The notes beneath the pieces are model-generated. The model had not been told where the DNA came from and did not search any database. It saw only the letters and a program-made list of their open reading frames with translations. From NCBI GenBank assembly GCA_036788695.1, contig DAIQMY010000001.1:1-59859 (forward strand): a DNA stretch of 59,859 bases. Reading direction: 5' to 3'. The translations under genes and the position numbers were made by a program. Source of the stretch: Candidatus Levyibacteriota bacterium (lineage in GTDB: Bacteria > Patescibacteriota > Microgenomatia > Levybacterales > GWA1-39-11). This document shows, one piece after another, positions 4,794-59,859 of this stretch; positions within the stretch are counted from its first letter, which is position 1, and every line of letters starts with the position of its first letter.

Positions 4794-5006
4794 ATGACTA
4801 CTCAAAACATATCAATCGAGAACCTACCTGATCTATTAACAGTTCGTGAAGTAGCCCAATTATTACGCGTTTCCCCTCTTACTATTAAACGTTGGGGGAA
4901 AAGAGGAAAATTACCTGCTATTAGAATCAACTCAAGAGGAGATAGAAGGTATAAAAAAGAAGCGGTTCTCTATCTACTTGGCATACAACAGAAGACTCAG
5001 TTGTAG
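4794..5006 (+). CDS. excisionase-like helix-turn-helix DNA-binding protein (HTH_17/MerR-like)
   Basis: LLTVREVAQLLRVSPLTIKRWGKRGKLPAIRI..GDRRY pattern. Confidence 0.9.
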   Translation: MTTQNISIENLPDLLTVREVAQLLRVSPLTIKRWGKRGKLPAIRINSRGDRRYKKEAVLYLLGIQQKTQL

Positions 5007-5092
5007 TTTATCTTCATAAATCAGCATAATCTTCTTTTTTGCGGTACTAAAAAAAGAAGCGGTTCTCTATCTACTTGGCATACAACAGAAGA
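4953..5092 (+). repeat. 43-bp exact duplication of the HTH gene 3' end
   Basis: 4953-4995 is identical to 5050-5092; CTTCTTTTTT (5031-5040) pairs with the first 10 nt of the copy. Confidence 0.95.
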
Positions 5093-6162: not shown

Positions 6163-6266
6163 AAGGTAAACGATTACCCCTAGTCATTTTTCATGAATGG
6201 AGCGTTTTAGTCTTGCCCCAGCAAGGTAAACGATTACCCCTAGTCATTTTTATTAATGGAGCGTTT
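6163..6266 (-). repeat. 60-bp-period duplication of the mreB 3' end
   Basis: 29 bp identical (6163-6191 = 6223-6251) plus 12 bp identical (6196-6207 = 6255-6266); spans the TAG stop. Confidence 0.95.
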
Positions 6267-13740: not shown

Positions 13741-16700
13741 CTAGATTACGAAGTTTATAATTTTGAGAGGTATATAAATAGTTTTTTTAATTTCAGCTTC
13801 CGAAAGATACTTATCTACCTCTATCCGTGCTTGGTTTTCTAAATAGGTACGATCAGGCATTGGTTCCTCAACTTTTATTACCATTTCACCTCGTTTTTTC
13901 CCGTTTACTTGGATTACTATAGTTATCTGCTCTGAGGCAAGATACTTTTCATCCCACTCTGGCCACCCTGACAGATGAATTGAATCTTTTTGACTTAACA
14001 CACTATGCCACAACTCATCAGTCATAAACGGTGCAAACGGTGCAAGCAGCTTTAAAAATACTTCTGCCTCTTGTCTTGAAACCTCTTTATGGCTAGATAA
14101 AAAATTGTACCACTCCATAAGCCCTGCAATTGCAGTGTTATATTTAAATTCTGATATATCCTGCGTTACTCTCTTTATAGTCTTATGCATCATCCCTAAA
14201 CCTTCATCTGAAAGCTTAAAATCAGTAACAATTGAAAACTTCTTCCATACTCGTCTGATAAACCGATTCATACCCTCAATTCCTGAATCTCTGAAATCTC
14301 CGCCATCTGAGAAGGGACCTAAAAACATTAAGTATGCTCGAAGCGTATCAGCTCCATATTTCAGAATATATTCATCAGGCACCACTACGTTCCCTTTTGA
14401 TTTGCTCATTTTCGCTCCATCCTTAATAATAAGCCCATGAGCAAAAAAACTTTCAAAAGGTTCTTCAAAATCCACAAATTTTAAATCGTACAGTACCATC
14501 GATATAAATCGACTATATAAAAGGTGTAGCACTGAATGCTCTGCTCCGCCAATATACTTTTTAACAGGAAGCCAACGTTTTTGGATGGTTTTATCCCATG
14601 GAGTAAAATCTTTTTGATCTATTTTGATACCTCTGGATATACTTTTTGCATTTTTGTTATCACCAGTTATGAGAGGGTCTGAGATATAACCCAAGAAATA
14701 CCATGCACTATCCAGAAAAGTATCAGACACATCTGTTTCACGCTTTGCCTTACCATTACAGGAAGGGCAACTCGTTTCATAAAATTCAGGATGATTCGCA
14801 AGAGGAGAAAGCCCAGTACCCATTGGCTTCCAATCATCTACGTCAGGAAGTGCTATGGGTAAATCCTCAAGTGGCGCGGAAAACCATCCAGGCATTTCAA
14901 TTTTTTCCCCTTTACCAGATTTTTTACATGATTCACAAAATATCATAGGAATTGGTGGACCCCAATATCTCTGTCTTGAAATAAGCCAGTCACGTAAATG
15001 GTACTGAACCTTCTTTTGACCAATACCAGCTTCTATTAATTTGTTTACTACAGTATTCATGCCCTCAGCCACTTGCAACCCATTCCAAGCGCCAGAGTTA
15101 ATTAGCTTTCCTTCTCCCACATAAGCTCCCAGTTCAAGATTTGAATCTTTTGCTGTTATAACTTCTCTTATAGGAAGCTTGTGTTTTTTTGCAAAATCAT
15201 AATCTCTTTGATCATGTGCAGGAACTGCCATAATCGCACCTGTCCCATACCCCATGAGTACATAGTCTGCTACCCAGACTGGAATTTTCTCGTTATTTAT
15301 AGGATTTATCACATACTGACCTGAGAAAACACCTGTCTTTTCCTTTTCATCAGCAGTCCTTTCATTTTCTGACTTATTGTGTGCCCTTTTTACATATTCT
15401 GATACTTTATTCTCCACTCCCTCTCTGAGAAGTGAAGAGACAAATGGGTGCTCGGGAGATACGACAAGGAATGTTGCACCAAATAAAGTATCCGGACGAG
15501 TTGTAAAGACTTCAATTGAAGGAAGAAGGTGTTTTACTATTTCCGGTTCTGTCTCACCGGATAGATGATCTCCCTGTGCTACTACTTCAATAATCTTCCC
15601 GCCTATCTTTTCTCTTATAAAGTCCGCCCTTCCACCCGGAACGGCTGTATCATTAAGTGCTTTGAGTAATATAACTTCCCCCGCATTCTTTTTTATTTTT
15701 TCAAAATCAAACTTCCAATCAAATGTTTCCTCAAATGGTCTTTTATGATCCAGGAAGCCTGGCTCGGCAAAACCTGCTGCAAGCACTAAGCCACGAATGG
15801 GAACATCTAATCTTTCTACTACTTTTAAGGCAATAACTGATCCCAAGCTGTGACCAAATAAAATTGTATCTGCATCAAAAGAGTAATTATCTATAACATA
15901 CTGTACCTGCTCATCAACTGTTGGATTTTCTGTTTTTGGGAGGTTTGGAACCATTACAGTATGTCCCTTTTTCTCCAACTCAGCCTTAAGCCAAGGATGG
16001 AAGTTAGATGTAGAATCAGCGCCAAAACCATGAAGGTTGATAAATCGGTACTTTTTATCTATTGGGAACTCTATCACTGCACCAGTCTTTCTGCCAATCC
16101 AGTTACGTTGGGAAATTTTCACCTTCTCAGTCCAATCTAATGTCTCAATATTCTGAAGAAGTCTTTCCGCATAATCTGTAATTTTAAAAAACCATTGTTC
16201 TAAGTCTTTTTTTTCAACTACAGAAGAACAACGTTCGCATTTCCCATCAATTACCTGCTCGTCAGACAATACCGTCTTGCAGGATGGGCACCAATTCACT
16301 TCTGCTTTCTTACGGTATGCCAAGCCTGCTTGAAACAATTTTATAAATAACCACTGTGTCCATCTATAATATAAAGGATCATATGTCTCCAAGGTCCTAC
16401 TCCAGTCAAATGAGTTGCCAATACTCCTTAACTGTCTGTAATAGTTCTCCTGAGAAAGCTTTGCTTGATCTTTGGGGTGACGCCCCACCTTGAGGGCATA
16501 GTTTTCTGAATGAATCCCAAATCCGTCTAAACCGATTGGCTCAAAAACGTCACTCCCCTTCATTCTATTAAACCGAGCGTATACATCAGCACCCGTAAAG
16601 GCATACATATTCCCCACATGAAGCCCTTCCGCAGAAGGGTAAGGGAACATCATTAAGTTAAAATAAGGTTTACTAGCGTTGAGTAAATCAGGCGTAAATG

Positions 16701-16770
16701 TTTTATCACTCTCCCATTTACTCTGCCATTTAGCCTCGATTTCCTGATGATTATAGGATAAATCCTTCAT
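13741..16770 (-). CDS. leuS: leucine--tRNA ligase with inserted alpha/beta hydrolase domain
   Basis: MFPYPSAEGLHVGN, FTTRPDTLFG, GTGAIMAVPAHDQRD, KMSKS; insert at about 15520-16053 contains GHSLG. Confidence 0.97.
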   Translation of the reverse strand: MKDLSYNHQEIEAKWQSKWESDKTFTPDLLNASKPYFNLMMFPYPSAEGLHVGNMYAFTGADVYARFNRMKGSDVFEPIGLDGFGIHSENYALKVGRHPKDQAKLSQENYYRQLRSIGNSFDWSRTLETYDPLYYRWTQWLFIKLFQAGLAYRKKAEVNWCPSCKTVLSDEQVIDGKCERCSSVVEKKDLEQWFFKITDYAERLLQNIETLDWTEKVKISQRNWIGRKTGAVIEFPIDKKYRFINLHGFGADSTSNFHPWLKAELEKKGHTVMVPNLPKTENPTVDEQVQYVIDNYSFDADTILFGHSLGSVIALKVVERLDVPIRGLVLAAGFAEPGFLDHKRPFEETFDWKFDFEKIKKNAGEVILLKALNDTAVPGGRADFIREKIGGKIIEVVAQGDHLSGETEPEIVKHLLPSIEVFTTRPDTLFGATFLVVSPEHPFVSSLLREGVENKVSEYVKRAHNKSENERTADEKEKTGVFSGQYVINPINNEKIPVWVADYVLMGYGTGAIMAVPAHDQRDYDFAKKHKLPIREVITAKDSNLELGAYVGEGKLINSGAWNGLQVAEGMNTVVNKLIEAGIGQKKVQYHLRDWLISRQRYWGPPIPMIFCESCKKSGKGEKIEMPGWFSAPLEDLPIALPDVDDWKPMGTGLSPLANHPEFYETSCPSCNGKAKRETDVSDTFLDSAWYFLGYISDPLITGDNKNAKSISRGIKIDQKDFTPWDKTIQKRWLPVKKYIGGAEHSVLHLLYSRFISMVLYDLKFVDFEEPFESFFAHGLIIKDGAKMSKSKGNVVVPDEYILKYGADTLRAYLMFLGPFSDGGDFRDSGIEGMNRFIRRVWKKFSIVTDFKLSDEGLGMMHKTIKRVTQDISEFKYNTAIAGLMEWYNFLSSHKEVSRQEAEVFLKLLAPFAPFMTDELWHSVLSQKDSIHLSGWPEWDEKYLASEQITIVIQVNGKKRGEMVIKVEEPMPDRTYLENQARIEVDKYLSEAEIKKTIYIPLKIINFVI

Positions 16771-16864
16771 AGATATTTTCAAGTATAGCATGCCTGCATT
16801 TATTTCTAAATACCTAAAGGGTAATTTGCTTGCAGATTTATCTTTTTGTGAATATAATTTATAT

Positions 16865-19915: not shown

Positions 19916-22900
19916 ATGAACATAGAACAACTTATTGGACAGTACAAAACTTATCTTTTAAGTAATCACTCTAAGATTACTGCGAAGAACTATGTTTCAG
20001 ACATTAATCACTTTGTTACGTGGTTTGCTAACAATTACAATACAGTGTTTTGTGCTGATTTATTAACATTAAATATCATTACTGCCTATAAGGAGCACAT
20101 TCAATCACAGTCAAACTCGCCAGAACACCAATATAGCTATAAGTCGGCAAGCAGGCACCTTTCAAGTCTCAGATCTTTTACTTCATACCTAGTATACGCA
20201 GAACTTATTCCCGAAAACCCATTCAAGGTACAGGCAGAAAATCAATCGGCTTCAGATCCATGGAGCTTAAAGGGATTTAAAAACTTTCTATACTCACAAC
20301 GCTCAAGTGATCTAACTGTAAAATACTATATCAATGATATACAAGGGTTCAGCAAGTGGTATGAAGAAACTGTTGGCAGCATAAAAACAGAAAACACACC
20401 AAATCTTAACGCTGAAATTTTCACTGAGTACTCAAGAAGACTTAACACCACACTTCTTCTTTCTCCAAGGACCGTAAACAGAAAACTCTCAAGCCTTAGA
20501 CGATATACCTCATATCTTCATTTACAAAACAGGATAGATGAAAAGATTACAGTCCCATCCCAAGTAAGTCCAGAAAGTACTGTTACTTTAAACGATATGG
20601 TAGTTCATACACCAACAGAACAATACTCTAAAATACCACCTGTGAGACTGGCACAAAGAATAACCCGACCATATCTCAAACTTGAAAACGCAGCAGCTGA
20701 CCTGATATCAGCTCAGATAATTAAAACAAAGTTGAGAAAAGCGTTTGAGAAAAATGGAATAAATAAAAAACAACCGCTAGATAGCATATTGCAGGGACTA
20801 AGCAATAATAATATAAAAAAGGAATTCTATGCCCCCTATAGCATCTCTACTCAAGAGTTTTCATTAAGAAAAAAAGCATATCATCATCTAAAACACACAA
20901 GGCCTGAATGGTATAAAAAGTATCATACCTATCCATTTGTCCATTATCTACATCTTGGAATACTAGTAGTGGCAGCTGTCTCCTCTGCTTTTTATCTTTA
21001 TTACAATACCATAGGGAATGCTAACGCAACAAATACACAAGCAAAAAAGATAATGCAAAAAACATTTGCGTTCAAAGGGAAACTTTTAGATAAAAATAAC
21101 AAACCCATTACCCAAGTAACAGACTTGAGACTTGGACTCTATACAAATCCTACTGCTAGCGGGAGTGCGCTTGCATGGCAAGAAGTTCAAACTGGAATAA
21201 AACCTGATGAGAATGGGAATATAAGCATTATCATAGGAAACAGAAATGAATTACCGCAACCTCTTATAGACTCTAATACTCCTCTCTACCTTGGGGTAAC
21301 TGTTGGTACAGATTCTGAGCTGGCACCTCGTCAACAAATTGGGACATCTTTCGCAAACACAGCAAACAGTGTACAAGGATTATTGCCGATTACAAATGCA
21401 AATAGACAGACAAACGTACTTCTGGCACTAGATGCAAGCGGGGTACTTTCTATTGGAGGTAGCGCAAATCCAATTTTTACGGCAAGCGGCGGTCAGTTTA
21501 CCTTATCAGGAAATACTATCCTACTTACCACAAACCCTGGGAGCAACGGAAATATTATTATAAATCCTTCAGAGAATGGAAAAATTGATCTTCAAAAACC
21601 GCTTATTAACAGCCAGGGAGAAATTCTTGCAGAAGGTGGACTCATTATTCATGCAACAACAAGCGCAAAATCAGCACTTACAATACAACAAGACATGGGA
21701 GGACCATTTATTACAGCCTCAACCTCTGGTCAAACCAGATTTCAAGTTGATAGCCAAGGAACAATTACTCATGGTAATTGGGCGGGAAACCCCATAAGTC
21801 CTGAATTTGGAGGATTCGGTGCAAATATAACTCCTGCAACACCCGGGGAAATACTCTATTCAATAAACACAACATCCTATGGTCATCTACGACCAGGAAC
21901 AGCCGGTCAGTGTCTTACGACAAATGGATATGCCGCACCACTTTGGAGCTCCTGCGGATTTCTTTCTCAGCTAAATGGTGCATTAACGCTTACTAATAAT
22001 ACGTTTGATATAGTTTTAGGCGGAAATTCAACTGATAGTGCAAAGTTTGTTTTTTCAAATATGAGCACCGGAACACCGCTTCTCAAAATTGGAAAGTCAC
22101 TTCTCCTAGGAGGGAACACTCTCTACACAAACGGAGAAGACTTAAGGCTTGGAACAGGTGAAACAAAAAATATACTCCTTGCCCAGGCAGGAAATGTGGG
22201 AATAAACTCCTCATCACCTACCCGCACGTTAGATGTAAATGGAACATGGGGAGGAAACGTTGACTTTTACAGTGATGGGGAAGGAAGTAGAACTATTACA
22301 AGAGACACAAAAGCTCTTATCTATGACCTTGAGAAAAGTACAGGAAGTTATAATCTGGACTCAGAAACTACATACAATATAACAGCACTACCAAATACTG
22401 AAGGAACTTTTGCCTATATATATACAAAGGTGGAAAAAGGAGCAACCTCTGACCCTGTAACACAAAAAATTTTCATACAGGTAAATGGAACACAAGTAGG
22501 TTTAGTGTCAACGAACAACACAACAAATTCTTATAAAAGCATAGAACACTACACGCTTACAAGAAGTAACAATACATGGCACCTCTTAGGAGATACCGGA
22601 ACAACAAATGACGCAGCAGATCTTGCTGAATGGACTAAATATGAAGGGAAGCATCCTCTATCAGGAAATTTAGTTAGTATAGGAATAAATGGAAAACTAG
22701 TACTATCACGTATTCCTTATGATTCAAAAATTGCAGGAGTTGTTTCAACAAAGCCTCATATAACAATAGGAGCACAGTATAAGGATACCACTCCGCTTGC
22801 GCTCTCAGGAAGAATACCTGCAATTGTTATGTCATTTAACGGTTCCATATCCGCGGGAGAGACAATCACATCCTCTCCAATTCCCGGAGTAGGAATGAGG

Positions 22901-24541
22901 ATGAAAAAATCAGGAGCTACCGTTGGAAAAACACTTGAACCATTTATTCCTGATACTTCTTGTAAAACAGTTGCCTCCCTTGAAAGTATCAAATGGCCAG
23001 ATGATGATGGGAAGAACACAAGCCGTCCATGCTTTAAGGTACCAGTTTCATCATTTGACTCGCTCACAATGACTTATCTAGCACAGTATGGGCTTTCTTA
23101 TGTAGACTACTTATATATAGGTAAAGTTATGATCCTTTCAAATCTCTCATGGTCAAATAATGAGGATCTTATTGCATCAGTTAATTCCGCAACCATAGCT
23201 GATAATACTATGCCCATTTCCGCGCTTGATCCATCCCTTGCAGCAACCATGGAAACACTTAACGCATCTACTCCAAGCGTTTTTGTTTCCGGTGAGGCTT
23301 TTCAAAATGTGGCTGCATTCTCAGGGGTTATTGCAGGGAAAATAAAAGCAGGAATTATCACGGCACAATATATTGCATCGGAAAATATTGCGGCGTCATA
23401 TGCCAAAATAACAAATCTTAGTGTTCAGAATAGCATCACAGCTGCAACAATCACATCTCCTCTTATTGAAGGAGATAGTGTAAAAACAAATTCTATTAGC
23501 CCAAGAAATACCACGGATCTTGCAATAAAACTTCCTACAAAAAACTCAAAAGTAAAAATACAAGATCAATCAGGAGAAACTGTTTCTGAAATAGATGCAA
23601 GCGGAAACGCATCGTTTTCAGGAACTATTAACTCGCAGGCACTTAACACAGATGGTGCGACCATCTCAGGAACACTACGAACACAAAATTTAATTGCAGA
23701 TAATATCGAAGGTCTTTCTGATACTGTCGCAAGCATTACTTCAAAAATTGTGAATAATTTAAAACCTGTAGAAAACAAGCAGTTGCCTCATTTATCTGAA
23801 ACACTTGCGCAGTCATCAGTCTCTGCACAATTTGGAACATTCTACCAGGGACTTTTATCCTTAGGCGCATCTACATTCGGAGATTTATCTGTTATGGATC
23901 AGCTATCAATTGGAACTACCTTTATATTCTCAGGAAACTCAATAAATACCCTTGGCACAGACCTTGCAATACAACCACTTAAACAAGGCGCAGTATCATT
24001 TCTTGCAGGAGCGGTACGCATAGAAGCGGATGGACAACTGTTTGTAAATGAGAATGCGATATTCAATAAAAATCTAAGCGTTAGAGGAAAACTCATGACA
24101 AATATTATATCTCCTCTTCCCGACTCAGACCTATCATTACAGCTACCTTCTGGAGGTCAAAAGGATGCAAAACTAGTAGTTAAAAATGCAAGCAACTCAG
24201 CGGTGCTCAGTATATCTTCGCGGGGAGATATTCACGCATCAGGATCTGCCACAATATCAAAGCTTAACTTTAATATTGTAGGACAAGCACTTGCCTCAGG
24301 CGAATATACCGCTAGCGCAAGTTCTTCTGCAGGAACTGCCATTATTAAAGCGGGTACAAATGAACTTACTATACTAAATCCTCTTGTAACACGCGATTCT
24401 CTTATTTATATTACGCCTGCACAAAACACAAATAATAATGTTCTTTATCTCATGCGGCAATCAGCAGGGGAAAGTTTTACCGTTGGGATATCTCAAGTTG
24501 TTCAATCTGATACGTTATTCAATTGGCTTATTGTAAATTAA
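19916..24541 (+). CDS. giant membrane protein: two integrase N-terminal core-binding domains, TM helix, fibre-like ectodomain
   Basis: TAKNYVSDINHF/SASRHLSSLRSF and TVKYYINDIQGF/TVNRKLSSLRRY; TM at about aa 345-365; AADLAE...GVVSTKP...ALSGR chaperone-like segment; no R-H-R-Y catalytic set recognised. Confidence 0.85.
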   Translation: MNIEQLIGQYKTYLLSNHSKITAKNYVSDINHFVTWFANNYNTVFCADLLTLNIITAYKEHIQSQSNSPEHQYSYKSASRHLSSLRSFTSYLVYAELIPENPFKVQAENQSASDPWSLKGFKNFLYSQRSSDLTVKYYINDIQGFSKWYEETVGSIKTENTPNLNAEIFTEYSRRLNTTLLLSPRTVNRKLSSLRRYTSYLHLQNRIDEKITVPSQVSPESTVTLNDMVVHTPTEQYSKIPPVRLAQRITRPYLKLENAAADLISAQIIKTKLRKAFEKNGINKKQPLDSILQGLSNNNIKKEFYAPYSISTQEFSLRKKAYHHLKHTRPEWYKKYHTYPFVHYLHLGILVVAAVSSAFYLYYNTIGNANATNTQAKKIMQKTFAFKGKLLDKNNKPITQVTDLRLGLYTNPTASGSALAWQEVQTGIKPDENGNISIIIGNRNELPQPLIDSNTPLYLGVTVGTDSELAPRQQIGTSFANTANSVQGLLPITNANRQTNVLLALDASGVLSIGGSANPIFTASGGQFTLSGNTILLTTNPGSNGNIIINPSENGKIDLQKPLINSQGEILAEGGLIIHATTSAKSALTIQQDMGGPFITASTSGQTRFQVDSQGTITHGNWAGNPISPEFGGFGANITPATPGEILYSINTTSYGHLRPGTAGQCLTTNGYAAPLWSSCGFLSQLNGALTLTNNTFDIVLGGNSTDSAKFVFSNMSTGTPLLKIGKSLLLGGNTLYTNGEDLRLGTGETKNILLAQAGNVGINSSSPTRTLDVNGTWGGNVDFYSDGEGSRTITRDTKALIYDLEKSTGSYNLDSETTYNITALPNTEGTFAYIYTKVEKGATSDPVTQKIFIQVNGTQVGLVSTNNTTNSYKSIEHYTLTRSNNTWHLLGDTGTTNDAADLAEWTKYEGKHPLSGNLVSIGINGKLVLSRIPYDSKIAGVVSTKPHITIGAQYKDTTPLALSGRIPAIVMSFNGSISAGETITSSPIPGVGMRMKKSGATVGKTLEPFIPDTSCKTVASLESIKWPDDDGKNTSRPCFKVPVSSFDSLTMTYLAQYGLSYVDYLYIGKVMILSNLSWSNNEDLIASVNSATIADNTMPISALDPSLAATMETLNASTPSVFVSGEAFQNVAAFSGVIAGKIKAGIITAQYIASENIAASYAKITNLSVQNSITAATITSPLIEGDSVKTNSISPRNTTDLAIKLPTKNSKVKIQDQSGETVSEIDASGNASFSGTINSQALNTDGATISGTLRTQNLIADNIEGLSDTVASITSKIVNNLKPVENKQLPHLSETLAQSSVSAQFGTFYQGLLSLGASTFGDLSVMDQLSIGTTFIFSGNSINTLGTDLAIQPLKQGAVSFLAGAVRIEADGQLFVNENAIFNKNLSVRGKLMTNIISPLPDSDLSLQLPSGGQKDAKLVVKNASNSAVLSISSRGDIHASGSATISKLNFNIVGQALASGEYTASASSSAGTAIIKAGTNELTILNPLVTRDSLIYITPAQNTNNNVLYLMRQSAGESFTVGISQVVQSDTLFNWLIVN

Positions 24542-27991: not shown

Positions 27992-28021
27992 GCACTACTT
28001 TTGGATATACGCTGCAAGAAT

Positions 28022-28536
28022 TTAGCCTAAGGTTAATAAAAACTCATTGTTATCTGAAAGAAACGATGAAACCCTAGTCTTTTCCGAGGTTTAGTAAGAA
28101 CACATTGTTATCTGGAGCGTAGCGGAAGAAACGATGATACCCTACCTAATCTTTGCCTAAATTCAATAAAAACTCATCGTTATCTGAAAGAAACGATGAA
28201 ACCCTAGTCTTTTCCGAGGTTTAATAAGAACACATTGTTATCCGAAGGAAAGGATGAAAACCTAATCTTTGCCTAAATTAAGTAAAAATTCATCGTTATC
28301 CGAAGGAAAGGATGATTACCCTAGTCTTTTCCGAGGTTTAATAGAAATTCATCGTTATCTGAAAGAAACGATGATACTCTAAGAAGTTTAATAAAAATTC
28401 ATCGTTATCCGAAGGAAAGGATGATTACCCTAGTCTTTTCCGAGGTTTAATAGAAATTCATTGTTATCTGGAGCGTAGCGGAAGAAACGATGAAACCCTA
28501 GTCTTTTCCGAGGTTTAATAAGAATTCATCGTTATC
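28022..28536 (-). repeat. tandem array of rho 3'-end copies with hairpin spacers (gene tail plus 8 copies)
   Basis: Units at 28022-28054, 28074-28112, 28146-28184, 28204-28242, 28262-28300, 28321-28359, 28379-28409, 28430-28468 and the gene tail 28498-28536; spacers 19-33 nt. Confidence 0.97.
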
Positions 28537-29805
28537 CTCAGTCTTACTTAATCGTTCTATAAGCACTTCTGCTCGTTCGTCTGGACTCAAAACATCAATC
28601 ATGCGTCTCATCATTACAACCTTTTTCAGCTTATCTTCAGGCATTAAAAGCTCTTCTTGGCGTGTGCCTGACTTCTCTACGTTAATAGCTGGAAATACGC
28701 GTCTTTCAGCAAGTCTTCTGTCTAAATGAAGCTCCATGTTTCCCGTACCCTTAAACTCCTCAAAAACTAAATCATCTAATCTGGAACCTGTGTCTACCAG
28801 TGCCGTACCTATTATAGTAAGGGATCCTCCATCTTCACAATTTCTAGCAGCCCCAAAGAACCGTTTTGTTGGATAAAGAGCAGCAGGATCATATCCTCCT
28901 GAAAGTGTGCGTCCGGATGGCTCAATTGACAAATTATATGCGCGAGCAAGCCTGGTAATTGAGTCTAGAAGAATAACCACGTGCTTACCATTCTCAACTA
29001 ATCTCTTTGCCCGATCTAGGGCAATCTCCGCAACTCTTGTCTGAATTTCAGGTGATTCATCAAAATTTGAGGCTACTACATCACCTTTGACGGAACGTGC
29101 GATATCTGTTACCTCTTCAGGGCGCTCTCCTATTAAGACCGCCATTAAATGAACGTCTGGGAAATTAGCGATAATACCTGAGGCTATATCCTTCAAAATA
29201 GTGGTTTTTCCAGCCTTAGGAGGTGATACAATCATACCTCTCTGTCCAAATCCAATAGGCGCGACTAAATCAATAATACGTGTTGAGAGTGGATATTTTT
29301 TAGTTGATAACTTGATCTGTGTATTTGGGTAGATAGGTGTTAAATCCTCAAAATAAGGTCTTTTTGTAGACTTATCTGCATCTACTCCGTTTACTCTGTT
29401 GATTTTCAATAATCCATAATACCGCTCGTTGTCTTTTGGTGGACGCCCTAAGCCCTCAACTAAATCCCCCGGTCTGAGCCAAAAACGACGAATTTGTGAA
29501 GATGATATATAGATATCATGATCTGATGGTCTGAATTTTGGCCTCAAAAAACCATGCCCTTCATGTTGAATATCTAAAATTCCGGAAACCACTTCTGTGC
29601 CTTCATCTCTATCCTGCGCACTCATATTGTTCTCACGGACGAAACCTTGATTTCTATCTTCAATTACTGGTTCTTCTCTGGGTGAAACTTGAGCTTGATC
29701 CATATTCCCTGACACTACACCTTCTGTGCCTGTATCCTGAGGAGCTGAGCCTATTGGGGCATCATTAGATGCTAATTTTCTAGTTGTTCGTTTTGTGTAT
29801 GGCAT
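28498..29805 (-). CDS. rho: transcription termination factor Rho
   Basis: GILDI...[47 protein letters not shown]. Confidence 0.98.
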
Positions 29806-41180: not shown

Positions 41181-41316
41181 ATATCCTAAGCCTGAGTAAG
41201 GATTCCCCACGGCTTTAGAAACGTAGTTTCGCAAGACGTAGTAACTAGAATATCCTAAACAAGAGTAAGTACAGAAGTATGATAGCTCCAACCTGAGTAA
41301 GGATTCCCCACGGCTT
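41181..41316 (-). repeat. degenerate duplication of the 3' end of the 41245..41706 gene
   Basis: 25 bp identical (41191-41215 = 41292-41316) and ATATCCTAA at 41181-41189 = 41250-41258, i.e. a copy with an internal deletion. Confidence 0.88.
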
Positions 41317-54459: not shown

Positions 54460-54596
54460 TTTTGCCCCTCAGTCGCGGGTTCTTGACCTTAAATTTTCGT
54501 TGGAAAATCGCAGGGCAAGCGTTAAAAGTAAAATATACTTTACGTAAAACTTAGGTTATTAAAACTGTTTTGCCCCTCAGTCCTTGGCCTTGACCT
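54460..54596 (-). repeat. partial duplication of the 5S rRNA 3' end and flank
   Basis: TTTTGCCCCTCAGTC at 54460-54474 and 54568-54582; CTTGACCT at 54482-54489 and 54589-54596. Confidence 0.7.
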
Positions 54597-54701
54597 ATCT
54601 TCCCCTAGTGTGTAACACTAAAGTATTGTAGGCGCTGGTGCGTTTCACTTCTCTGTTCGGAATGGGAAGAGGTGGTACCACACCGCTCCAAAGACCAAAG
54701 A
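54581..54701 (-). rRNA. rrf: 5S rRNA
   Basis: CCCATTCCGAAC and AAGTGAAAC conserved segments; terminal helix; ends approximate. Confidence 0.93.
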
Positions 54702-54770
54702 CTCAAGGGCAAAACTTTTCAAACAAACTTCAAACTTATTCTTTCCTACCATTTGGTTTCTTAAAACCCA

Positions 54771-58130
<3,360 letters not shown>

Positions 58131-58432
58131 TAGATTCTAAAAAACCAATTCAAATAAAACCATGTGTTCGGCAAAGAAACATGGAACCCCGCCGAGCGGG
58201 ATTTTTGGCCTAGTTGTTTGTCACGTTCATATAATTGAACGTAATTTACCACGTTCAAAGACTGAACGTGGTCGTTTGTTTGTTATTTTCTCCCAATTAT
58301 TAATGAGCAAAAAACTTTCTCGTGTATTCGTACCTGACGGTGAGTAAAATTGCACTCAGCCGCTCAGGTACCAGTACACGAGCATTTCATATTTGATGTG
58401 CCTGCACTGAGGTCCGCCAAGGCGGACCGAAG

Positions 58433-58505
58433 TGGACCCAAGGAGATTCGAACTCCTGACCTCCTCATTGCAAATGAGGCGCACTACCAACTGTGCTATG
58501 GGCCC
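58433..58505 (-). tRNA. tRNA-Ala(TGC)
   Basis: GGGCCCA acceptor with G3.U70, anticodon stem CCTCA/TGAGG, loop TTTGCAA. Confidence 0.97.
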
Positions 58506-58726: not shown

Positions 58727-59470
58727 CTAGCCAGATTTTAGCCTCTTGTCAAGCACTAGTTTAGGTTGTGGTACAGGTGTTTTTACACGGGGGAAATTAA
58801 CGTCAAAAAAGGCAAAGCCGTCCCGATTCATTGTCTCTCTATATTCTATGCCCAAAGCTCCTTTCGTATTCTTTTCATACTGAAAACCCTTTCCAAAGTT
58901 TGGGCTCCGTACTTCTTGCCATTCAGATGAAGGATTAGAAGTAGGTGGCTTCTGAAAAAACGTTTCATATGAACTAATCATGTCCTCCTTGCCCATCTGT
59001 GCCTTACTCCACCACGCCCGACCACCCCCACTTTCCATCATGTCACTTCTATCAGGATCTATTGCCCCATCTAAACCTAACCTTGTATGAATAGACAAAG
59101 TTTTTGCACCCTCCTCATGATGATGAACATAAACAGAAACAGTTGAATTTATCTCTTTATCTGAATTAACGTTCTGTGGCCAATACAGTTCATACGTTTG
59201 TAATGCCTCGTAAACATAATTAAAAACAAAGTGTTTTGAGAAGTCTTCGGGGTTTGCTTGTGTGATAAAAACTTTAAACGAATTCCAAAAGTCTGCATTT
59301 TTTCTCATGTCTACACGCTTATTCATGAGTTGAAGAAAATATGCTGCAACAATAGGGACTTCCGGTTTTTTAACTTCAGGGGAATCCTCTATTCCTGCGT
59401 TTATCCCAAGTGCAGCAGCACCAACAACAGCCGCGCCACCAATCAATAATTCACGCCTGCTCAAACCCAT
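58727..59470 (-). CDS. hypothetical protein with twin-arginine-like N-terminus
   Basis: MGLSRRELLIGGAAVVGAAALG; TATAAT lies 7 nt before ATG. Confidence 0.75.
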   Translation of the reverse strand: MGLSRRELLIGGAAVVGAAALGINAGIEDSPEVKKPEVPIVAAYFLQLMNKRVDMRKNADFWNSFKVFITQANPEDFSKHFVFNYVYEALQTYELYWPQNVNSDKEINSTVSVYVHHHEEGAKTLSIHTRLGLDGAIDPDRSDMMESGGGRAWWSKAQMGKEDMISSYETFFQKPPTSNPSSEWQEVRSPNFGKGFQYEKNTKGALGIEYRETMNRDGFAFFDVNFPRVKTPVPQPKLVLDKRLKSG

Positions 59471-59516
59471 GAGTTTGATTATATTCCCACGATAGAACTA
59501 AATCAAACTGAAGAAA

Positions 59517-59695
59517 TTACTTAGGAGATTGTTGATTTCGAAGCCATTTCTCTACATCAAGGCCAGCCCCTGAGATTACTCAGGGCGAGTAGCTGACCTT
59601 AGGATGCATTCTGCATCCTGAACGGAAAGGTTTCTACAGTAGCGGGGAACTAAGGTTGTTGATTTCGAAGCCATTTCTCTACATCAAGGCCAGCC
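59517..59695 (-). repeat. 40-bp exact duplication of the trxB 3' end with hairpin spacer
   Basis: 59529-59568 is identical to 59656-59695; the copy ends QQSPK*TAA, the gene ends QQP*TAG. Confidence 0.95.
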
Positions 59696-59859
59696 ATACA
59701 TCCAAACGCTGCGGCGGTTACTGCTTGTTGATACTGTGCATCATGTAAGTCTCCCTCCACAAAAACCCCCTCTAGGTTTGTCTTTTTGTGATCAAAAGTC
59801 TTAATAAAAACCTTCTCATCTGTTTCAATATTCGCAAATACCTTGGAATTAGGCATATG
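59650..59859 (-). CDS. trxB: thioredoxin reductase, C-terminal fragment (cut by window edge)
   Basis: [31 protein letters not shown]. Confidence 0.88.

Follow-up and report, generated by a model that had tools for sequence, protein, structure and literature searches.

The thioredoxin reductase gene (trxB) at the end of the window, by which we mean the whole 59,859-nt stretch of DNA analyzed here, ends in a 127-bp insertion, which places a second copy of 40 nt of the gene's tail beyond an 87-nt orphan spacer and supplies the gene with a different stop codon. This insertion is a real, strain-specific, small structural polymorphism, and not a new system. For its origin, we assign a probability of about 0.5 to a single Campbell-like recombination with imported trxB-tail DNA, after which the two copies would have been homogenized, with a near-neutral outcome for the enzyme.

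TrxB and its neighbors identify the source of the window as an uncultivated Candidatus Levybacteria/Levyibacteriota MAG (Patescibacteria/CPR), and the gene order on its minus strand is trxA, trxB, a 247-aa orphan gene, tRNA-Ala, 23S, and 5S rRNA. The 3' part of trxB (thioredoxin-disulfide reductase; 59650-59859, minus strand) is truncated by the window end and terminates with the stop codon TAG at 59650-59652, giving the tail ...WLRNQQP*; at full length, the TrxB of the window (P0123) has 332 aa, and the Pfam family Pyr_redox_2 is matched in the TrxB of the related loci L002/L007. The 247-aa gene (58727-59470, minus strand) encodes a protein whose N-terminus is twin-arginine-like and which matches no Pfam family and has a single distant homologue. 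Its promoter-like site, TTGATT-17-TATAAT (59478-59506, minus strand), lies downstream of the second repeat copy, is left intact by the insertion, and is conserved in insertion-free strains.

Several further features of this region and of the window were recorded. What lies between trxB and the conserved rRNA promoter varies: the 247-aa orphan in this species, an unrelated 149-aa gene in L001/L012, and no gene in L015. The 247-aa gene runs into the rRNA promoter-like site (58752-58724), which its stop overlaps. The rRNA locus itself (54582-58505) comprises tRNA-Ala(TGC), 23S, and 5S and lacks an upstream 16S. At 3360 nt, its 23S match exceeds the 2925-nt model by ∼435 nt, the surplus being an insertion or intron; no Rfam intron family is found at the gathering threshold. 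Within trxB, the stretch 59735-59800 (minus strand) has ten private substitutions in 63 nt, which cause five amino-acid changes and alter GVFVAGDVHD in the conserved FAD-binding stretch. These substitutions are mostly transversions toward G/T runs and are matched in no other lineage, and the patch looks like low-quality or mis-polished sequence rather than true divergence. Elsewhere, the sole Pfam matches of a 1541-aa protein (19916-24541, plus strand) are to phage-integrase N-terminal SAM-like domains (PF02899, in two stretches, and PF13495), with no catalytic domain recognized, and the leucyl-tRNA synthetase (13741-16791, minus strand) contains an inserted alpha/beta-hydrolase domain at residues ∼250-355.

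The two repeat copies are exact: as the first-pass annotation of this DNA had claimed, the 40-mer TTGTTGATTTCGAAGCCATTTCTCTACATCAAGGCCAGCC occurs at both 59529-59568 and 59656-59695, while two matches occur in 0 of 100 shuffles. The pair can be lengthened to 43 nt with one mismatch, and its spacing is 127. In the direction of transcription, the translated upstream copy, A1 (59656-59695, minus strand), covers 12 residues (the last 13 trxB codons but one) and is followed by the orphan spacer, B (87 nt; 59569-59655, minus strand), which opens with the new codon CCT (59653-59655) and then TAG (59650-59652). The untranslated downstream copy, A2 (59529-59568, minus strand), is succeeded by TCT CCT AAG TAA (SPK*; 59517-59528, minus strand), the displaced, probably ancestral end, which is the functional end in insertion-free strains. 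The trxB reading frame thus ends ...RNQQP-TAG (59650-59652) and the downstream copy reads ...RNQQSPK-TAA (59517-59519), so that a reading of the minus strand returns both of the ends that had been assigned to gene and copy. The sequence after A1, CCTTAGT, is like the original tail, CCTAAGT, at 6 of 7 positions; this resemblance of the end of B to the old tail, and that of CCTGAGTAATCTC to CCTAAGTAATTTC, are not statistically significant.

Both alleles of the locus are present among close relatives. The A1-B-A2 insertion is carried by the window, by ERZ794922 (L002/L007), by GCA_964419005.1 (L008), and by SRR27787828 (L009) and SRR14932700 (L010), the last two being Logan contigs; the related contigs were found via the exact 247-aa protein and members of the TrxB cluster. 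The insertion is also implied in L006, a Logan unitig from SRR2107210 that begins exactly 30 nt (k-1) before the repeat end, as expected at a de Bruijn branch. The empty site occurs in four independent assemblies, GCA_017992235.1 (L003), SRR11088468 (L004), SRR5278607 (L005), and JAGORM01 (L011, the GTDB representative), in each of which exactly 127 bp are missing and the trxB end is collinear with A2 of the window and the sequence that follows it. TrxB in these strains has 334 aa and ends ...WLRMQQSPK*, vs. 332 aa and QQP for the insertion form. Several TPA MAGs among the loci L012-L019, with TrxB 63-84% identical to this Levybacteria protein, are titled "uncultured Gammaproteobacteria bacterium," which is probably a taxonomic mislabel.

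The distribution of these alleles bears on which end of the gene is older. It had been proposed that the downstream copy is the ancestral end, displaced by an insertion that brought a new TAG stop, and that an alignment of C-termini (QQSPK vs. QQP) would test this, spacer-free relatives ending in QQP being one outcome that would count against it. That outcome is not what the relatives show: all four spacer-free strains end in QQSPK, and QQP is the ending of none of the 70 TrxB tails read, out of 120 related TrxB clusters listed. In the same 70 tails, the part past ...WLR(M/N)Q consists of 1-8 variable residues, with Q-(Q/E/A)-S common. These comparisons support QQSPK as the older tail state and also the proposed displacement, as the strains that are free of the 127 bp encode ...QQSPK*, and the new stop comes from B, which provides CCT-TAG directly after A1. 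Insertion into an old QQSPK end is therefore the supported and favored polarity, although a deletion between the copies would yield the same empty allele. There is no syntenic outgroup to root the polarity because the neighboring 247-aa gene is an orphan, and the population is a mosaic, so clade logic is weak. With respect to the 247-aa gene, the window and L002 have the allele of the insertion-free strains, and L008, L009, and L010 share another.

The spacer and its border with A2 fold into the two hairpins that the first reading of the sequence had described. Hairpin 1 (59601-59619, minus strand) pairs AGGATGCA with TGCATCCT in an 8-bp stem with a 3-nt loop. Hairpin 2 (59559-59600, minus strand) is compound: an inner 7-bp stem with a 4-nt loop (CCCTGAG-ATTA-CTCAGGG, 59568-59585) lies inside an outer 9-bp stem formed by AAGGCCAGC (59559-59567) with GCTGACCTT (59592-59600), and the arm at 59559-59567 is made up of the first bases of A2. 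The fold of 59555-59660 (106 nt) has z = -4.25 as DNA and -3.84 as sense-strand RNA, i.e., about -4, with 0 of 200 shuffles as good; in a 201-nt context, the z of the whole region is only -0.98, and the centroid retains the same hairpins. Perfect hairpins of at least 7 bp number 58 stem/loop combinations in the window (∼45 distinct by eye) vs. ∼30 in shuffles, and it is the compound structure, not any single stem, that stands out.

Across haplotypes, five positions of B are variable, with L008 accounting for one and L009/L010 for four, and none of them lies in the three stems (chance about 0.06); the stem of hairpin 1 is invariant across all insertion haplotypes, and the L009 version of B folds better still (z = -4.87). 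This stem-sparing variation is suggestive, but not proof, of selection. A reading of the hairpins as an intrinsic terminator was rejected, since no T-run stands behind them (AAGG.. and GATG.. are found instead), and a terminator scan identified no site in 59500-59700. No Rfam match was obtained for 59450-59760 up to E = 10.

A search for the spacer (59569-59649) elsewhere in the genome had also been suggested as a check; it was run on the window, on 1.3 Mb of related loci, and on sequence collections, and it returned no other copy. Specifically, no second copy of B was found by blastn-short in the 60-kb window, or by blastn and nhmmer in the 103 fetched loci (1.3 Mb). Exact 24-31-mers of B are absent from IMG/VR, the GTDB species genomes, and the JGI metagenomes, a result which diverged copies could escape and which has lower sensitivity for the JGI metagenomes, where both patterns (24-mers) covered sites that are variable in L009. 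Similarly, B has no blastn match in INPHARED phages and PLSDB plasmids, which diverged copies could again escape. Because the spacer is no repeated element, a genome search cannot reveal its source.

The nature of the spacer was further delimited by several candidate readings that were tried and rejected. B encodes no recombinase gene, and the sole ORF of at least 20 aa that overlaps it is a 32-aa one in an overlapping frame. Compared on both strands with the sequence before A (X), with A, and with the sequence after A (Y), B gives local alignments no better than those of shuffles (p 0.11-0.41); it is not a diverged copy of its flanks, and therefore the locus is not a simple head-to-tail duplication. 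A plain tandem duplication was accordingly rejected, the repeat at 41191-41316 being by contrast a true tandem unit. A transposon or MITE was rejected given the lack of dispersed copies in the 60-kb window, the 1.3 Mb of loci, or the collections, and also because the termini (CCTTAG/CCTGAG) are alike at only 5 of 6 positions and the duplication measures 40 bp, vs. 2-15 bp for target duplications. REP and CRISPR-like readings were rejected on their defining features. A diversity-generating arrangement (DGR) was rejected since the copies in the window are identical and the differences in L009 are C/T and TG/AT, not adenine-specific; moreover, the neighbors are trxA, trxB, and the 247-aa orphan, with no reverse transcriptase among them. 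Finally, a recurrent integration hot spot at the trxB tail was rejected, as no tail duplicate occurs within 10 kb in 20 relatives.

The most informative haplotype is that of L009 and L010: its A1 and A2 disagree at 4 sites, and they do so reciprocally. In the empty-site allele, the states are C13, G22, and C29, with ATG occupying positions 33-35. The A1 of L009 retains C13, G22, and C29 and has AAT (Asn) where it adjoins B, and its A2 has T13, G22, and T29 where it adjoins B and ATG (Met, as in the empty site) where it adjoins SPK*. Every one of these differences is donor-like on the side proximal to B and resident-like on the distal side, and the pattern would be explained if a molecule with its own version of A had crossed over once, between positions 29 and 33. 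The pattern amounts to no more than 3-4 mutational events, and a deletion running the opposite way, or an in-situ duplication with subsequent point mutations, would produce it equally well.

We propose that one recombination took place with DNA bearing a slightly different trxB tail plus B. The donor would, most simply, be a trxB 3' flank with terminator-like hairpins, imported from an unsampled relative, and the likeness of CCT-TAG-T to CCT-AAG-T hints that the incoming DNA was the trxB end of a relative, with B as its 3' flank. One junction would be the crossover within the 40-nt tract. The other would lie at a ∼10-nt match, GGCTGGCCTT, in which the 3' arm of the outer hairpin of B and the start of A coincide, and a microhomology join there is plausible. 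With the second join upstream of the first, the intervening 40 nt would be duplicated as a result. In the locus as it stands, translation passes from A1 into B and stops after one new codon. The event would be of the Campbell-like, homology-facilitated illegitimate recombination type, with no transposase or integrase involved now, and the copies in the lineage of the window would have been made identical at a later step, by gene conversion or unequal exchange. A donor lineage, i.e., QQP* followed by B with no A2, was found neither in the 70 TrxB tails read (of 120 listed) nor in the scans for B.

Compared with known systems, the locus shares features with several and coincides with none in full. 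Like the attL/attR duplication that accompanies att-site integration, it has direct repeats, one of them in a gene end; the incoming sequence completes the gene with a new stop and pushes the old end downstream, the empty site is found in relatives, and the chimeric repeats of one haplotype fit one crossover. In contrast to such duplications, only 87 nt separate the repeats, there is no recombinase and no element elsewhere, and the arrangement does not recur at trxB in relatives. The proposed join, at one homologous stretch and one (extended) microhomology, is like that in homology-facilitated illegitimate recombination and SPDIR of naturally transformable bacteria; SPDIR microindels arise by microhomology-mediated insertion of ectopic DNA (10.1101/2023.11.22.568220). 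The insert is likewise under ∼100 nt, of no recognizable origin, and in need of no dedicated enzyme. However, the SPDIR events described usually replace sequence, whereas here the second join lies upstream of the first, so that 40 nt are duplicated; the comparison also assumes competence of the Levybacteria host, and no donor was found. The templated insertions of SD-MMEJ create new direct and inverted repeats (PMC5728401), and the trxB junction resembles them in its new direct repeat and inverted flank repeat, although the trxB insert is much longer and not locally copied; the SD-MMEJ mechanism is known from eukaryotes, and its bacterial description involves group II intron-like RTs. Lastly, as in short tandem duplications with copy-number variation and concerted evolution, the two copies of the window are identical, and the 127-nt period lies within the 97-127-nt range of the lineage's other duplications, but the spacer is unrelated to the sequence past the second copy.

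A replication or repair error in situ is an unlikely but serious alternative to imported trxB-tail DNA. In this account, a template switch (snap-back/loop-out, SD-MMEJ-like, or with an SPDIR-type ectopic strand) re-copied 40 nt, the 87 nt are trapped filler DNA, and the differences between the L009 copies are later point mutations. Mechanisms of this kind give insertions that are flanked by new direct and inverted repeats (PMC5728401), and microindels of up to ∼100 bp at microhomologies are known (10.1101/2023.11.22.568220); in addition, the end of B is an inverted copy of the first 9 nt of A, and gene-boundary duplications of 97-127 nt are frequent in the lineage. Beyond those 9 nt, however, B matches nothing nearby on either strand, while templated insertions normally copy local sequence, and donor sequence is the better reading of the adjacent double change (ATG to AAT) where A1 borders B. 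We consider it improbable that the polarity is the reverse, with QQP* plus B as the original state, A2 together with the following sequence and the 247-aa gene as a cassette bearing a foreign trxB tail, and the "empty" strains as ones that lost B through recombination between the repeats. The empty-site A does equal the left part of the L009 A1 joined to the right part of its A2, which is what a deletion would leave; the stretch from trxB to the rRNA promoter varies in gene content (the 149-aa gene in L001/L012, none in L015); and the 247-aa gene is an orphan. Yet this history requires two events, not one; QQP is absent from all 70 tails read, in which tails of the QQS type prevail, as does Met at the M/N position, and the 247-aa gene is present in 3 of 3 haplotype groups.

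The direct repeats, the replaced tail, the empty site in relatives, and the reciprocal chimeric cores of L009 could also be seen as traces of an integrative element, A1 and A2 being the attL and attR cores of an island or prophage at the trxB 3' end, the interior of which was later deleted to 87 nt. Such a remnant is a little less probable again, since none of the 5 insertion haplotypes has a recombinase between the repeats and the interior is 87 nt in all of them, a trxB-tail duplicate within 10 kb occurs in 0 of 20 related genomes, neither A nor B is found in IMG/VR, INPHARED phages, or PLSDB plasmids, and a 40-bp core with an 87-nt interior demands a further precise deletion. That the locus is a functional module, acting through programmed translational bypassing (as in T4 gene 60), as a recombinational tail switch, or with its hairpins as a selected terminator, is very improbable. 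Such a module would be suited by the stop one codon past the repeat, by the strong stem-loop, by stems that are invariant among haplotypes, and by a matching copy downstream that runs on into QQSPK; against it stand the gap of 127 nt, the trivial difference between the two tails in a non-conserved region, the in-frame TGA and 4 mismatches in the downstream copy of L009, and the missing T-run behind the hairpins. To our knowledge, no programmed translational bypass comes near a 127-nt gap in length. As for an assembly artefact, a false duplication left by the collapse of a strain bubble, joins between strain variants can go wrong in MAG assemblies, and the window has a suspicious private substitution patch 80 nt upstream. 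The chance of this is nevertheless negligible, because A1-B-A2 was recovered as the same structure from at least 5 samples, in assemblies and Logan contigs that are independent and come from different assemblers, with co-varying SNPs in B.

Under recombination with imported DNA, the identity of the copies outside L009/L010 calls for the later homogenization proposed above. In the window, L002/L007, and L008, both copies have T13, A22, C29, and AAT, and given these identical states, information would have moved both ways between A1 and A2. Concerted evolution of ∼40-nt repeats is demonstrated for another pair in the window, an exact 43-nt repeat (4953-4995/5050-5092) formed by the tail of a 70-aa HTH_17/MerR-like gene (4794-5006, plus strand) and a copy 97 nt downstream. 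The HTH_17 tail pair is present in L104 (5234-5373) with two SNPs mirrored in both copies, and in the more distant L105 (5125-5272), the coding copy has nine synonymous changes, each of which (9 of 9) recurs in the non-coding copy, the protein being unchanged except for one tail residue beyond the repeat. The lineages with mirrored changes differ at ∼21% of positions within the repeat. Logan unitigs of this pair from SRR27787828, SRR2107210, and SRR30542699 break exactly 30 nt into the repeat. A junction-hairpin signature shared by this pair and the trxB locus was considered and dropped, as the 10-bp inverted repeat at 4953-5092 is A/T-rich, thermodynamically ordinary (z -0.6 to -1.1), and not conserved in L105.

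Further loci of the lineage have short duplications at the edges of genes, and these are true tandem units that vary in copy number. The repeat at 41191-41215/41292-41316 belongs to a 101/102-nt tandem unit that comprises the tail of a membrane-protein gene (stop 41245, minus strand) plus its 3' flank. This unit is present once in L095, once with an additional, partly deleted copy in the window (1.4 copies), twice in L099, and three times in L098, and its duplication leaves the gene's own end unchanged. The tail of the ATP-dependent DNA ligase gene is found in 2-3 copies with a period of 102-107 nt (L002 989-1168; L003 1038-1217; L011 1882-2268). In L098-L100, the gene that follows the S1-domain gene has the region of its first 38 nt repeated 118 nt upstream (L098 2732-2887); this gene, with Zn_ribbon_LapB/AAA_25 hits, is one we take to be RadA-like. 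Among the sampled cases, the periods of the gene-boundary duplications cluster at 97-127 nt. Intergenic repeats of a different kind were also observed: an array at 28007-28540 has ∼7 units of 58-72 nt with the motif AAGAAACGATGAAACCCTAGTCTTTTCCGAGG..., and a related 59/60-nt repeat pair (6163-6266; AAGGTAAACGATTACCCCTAGTC...) lies between mreB and a WecG-family gene. The mreB/WecG-family spacer measures 269, 330, or 387 nt in different strains, pointing to copy-number variation.

It would be a long extrapolation from these cases, and one we hold to be improbable, that Levybacteria (CPR) genomes carry a class of 97-127-bp gene-boundary duplications whose copies are actively kept identical. If they did, this would imply either unusually efficient short-tract copying or a use for the spare tails, as a recombinational or translational switch, and the trxB case would then represent a young member caught beside its empty site.

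For the enzyme, the insertion costs TrxB two residues, the non-conserved tail now having Pro in place of Ser-Pro-Lys. In low-Mr thioredoxin reductases, the CxxC center belongs to the NADPH domain and there is no C-terminal redox motif; the TrxB protein here contains ...SSCAPCDA.... The effect of the insertion is probably neutral or near-neutral, because the tail past ...WLR(M/N)Q varies among relatives and because a low-Mr TrxR has no C-terminal redox center. Beyond the protein, the insertion may endow the trxA-trxB mRNA with a stable predicted stem-loop in its 3' UTR, and it places the promoter of the next gene 127 nt farther from trxB.

The wider interest of the locus is limited to the family of short, concertedly evolving gene-boundary duplications, and the trxB event by itself opens no new question. 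For annotation, it serves as a warning that the trxB end and the downstream pseudo-tail are genuine and do not stem from an assembly error. For an uncultivated CPR bacterium, both alleles and an intermediate haplotype of an insertion-duplication are preserved in public data, and together they illustrate what is probably a harmless replacement of a protein tail and the apparent homogenization of 40-nt repeats that lie 87 nt apart.
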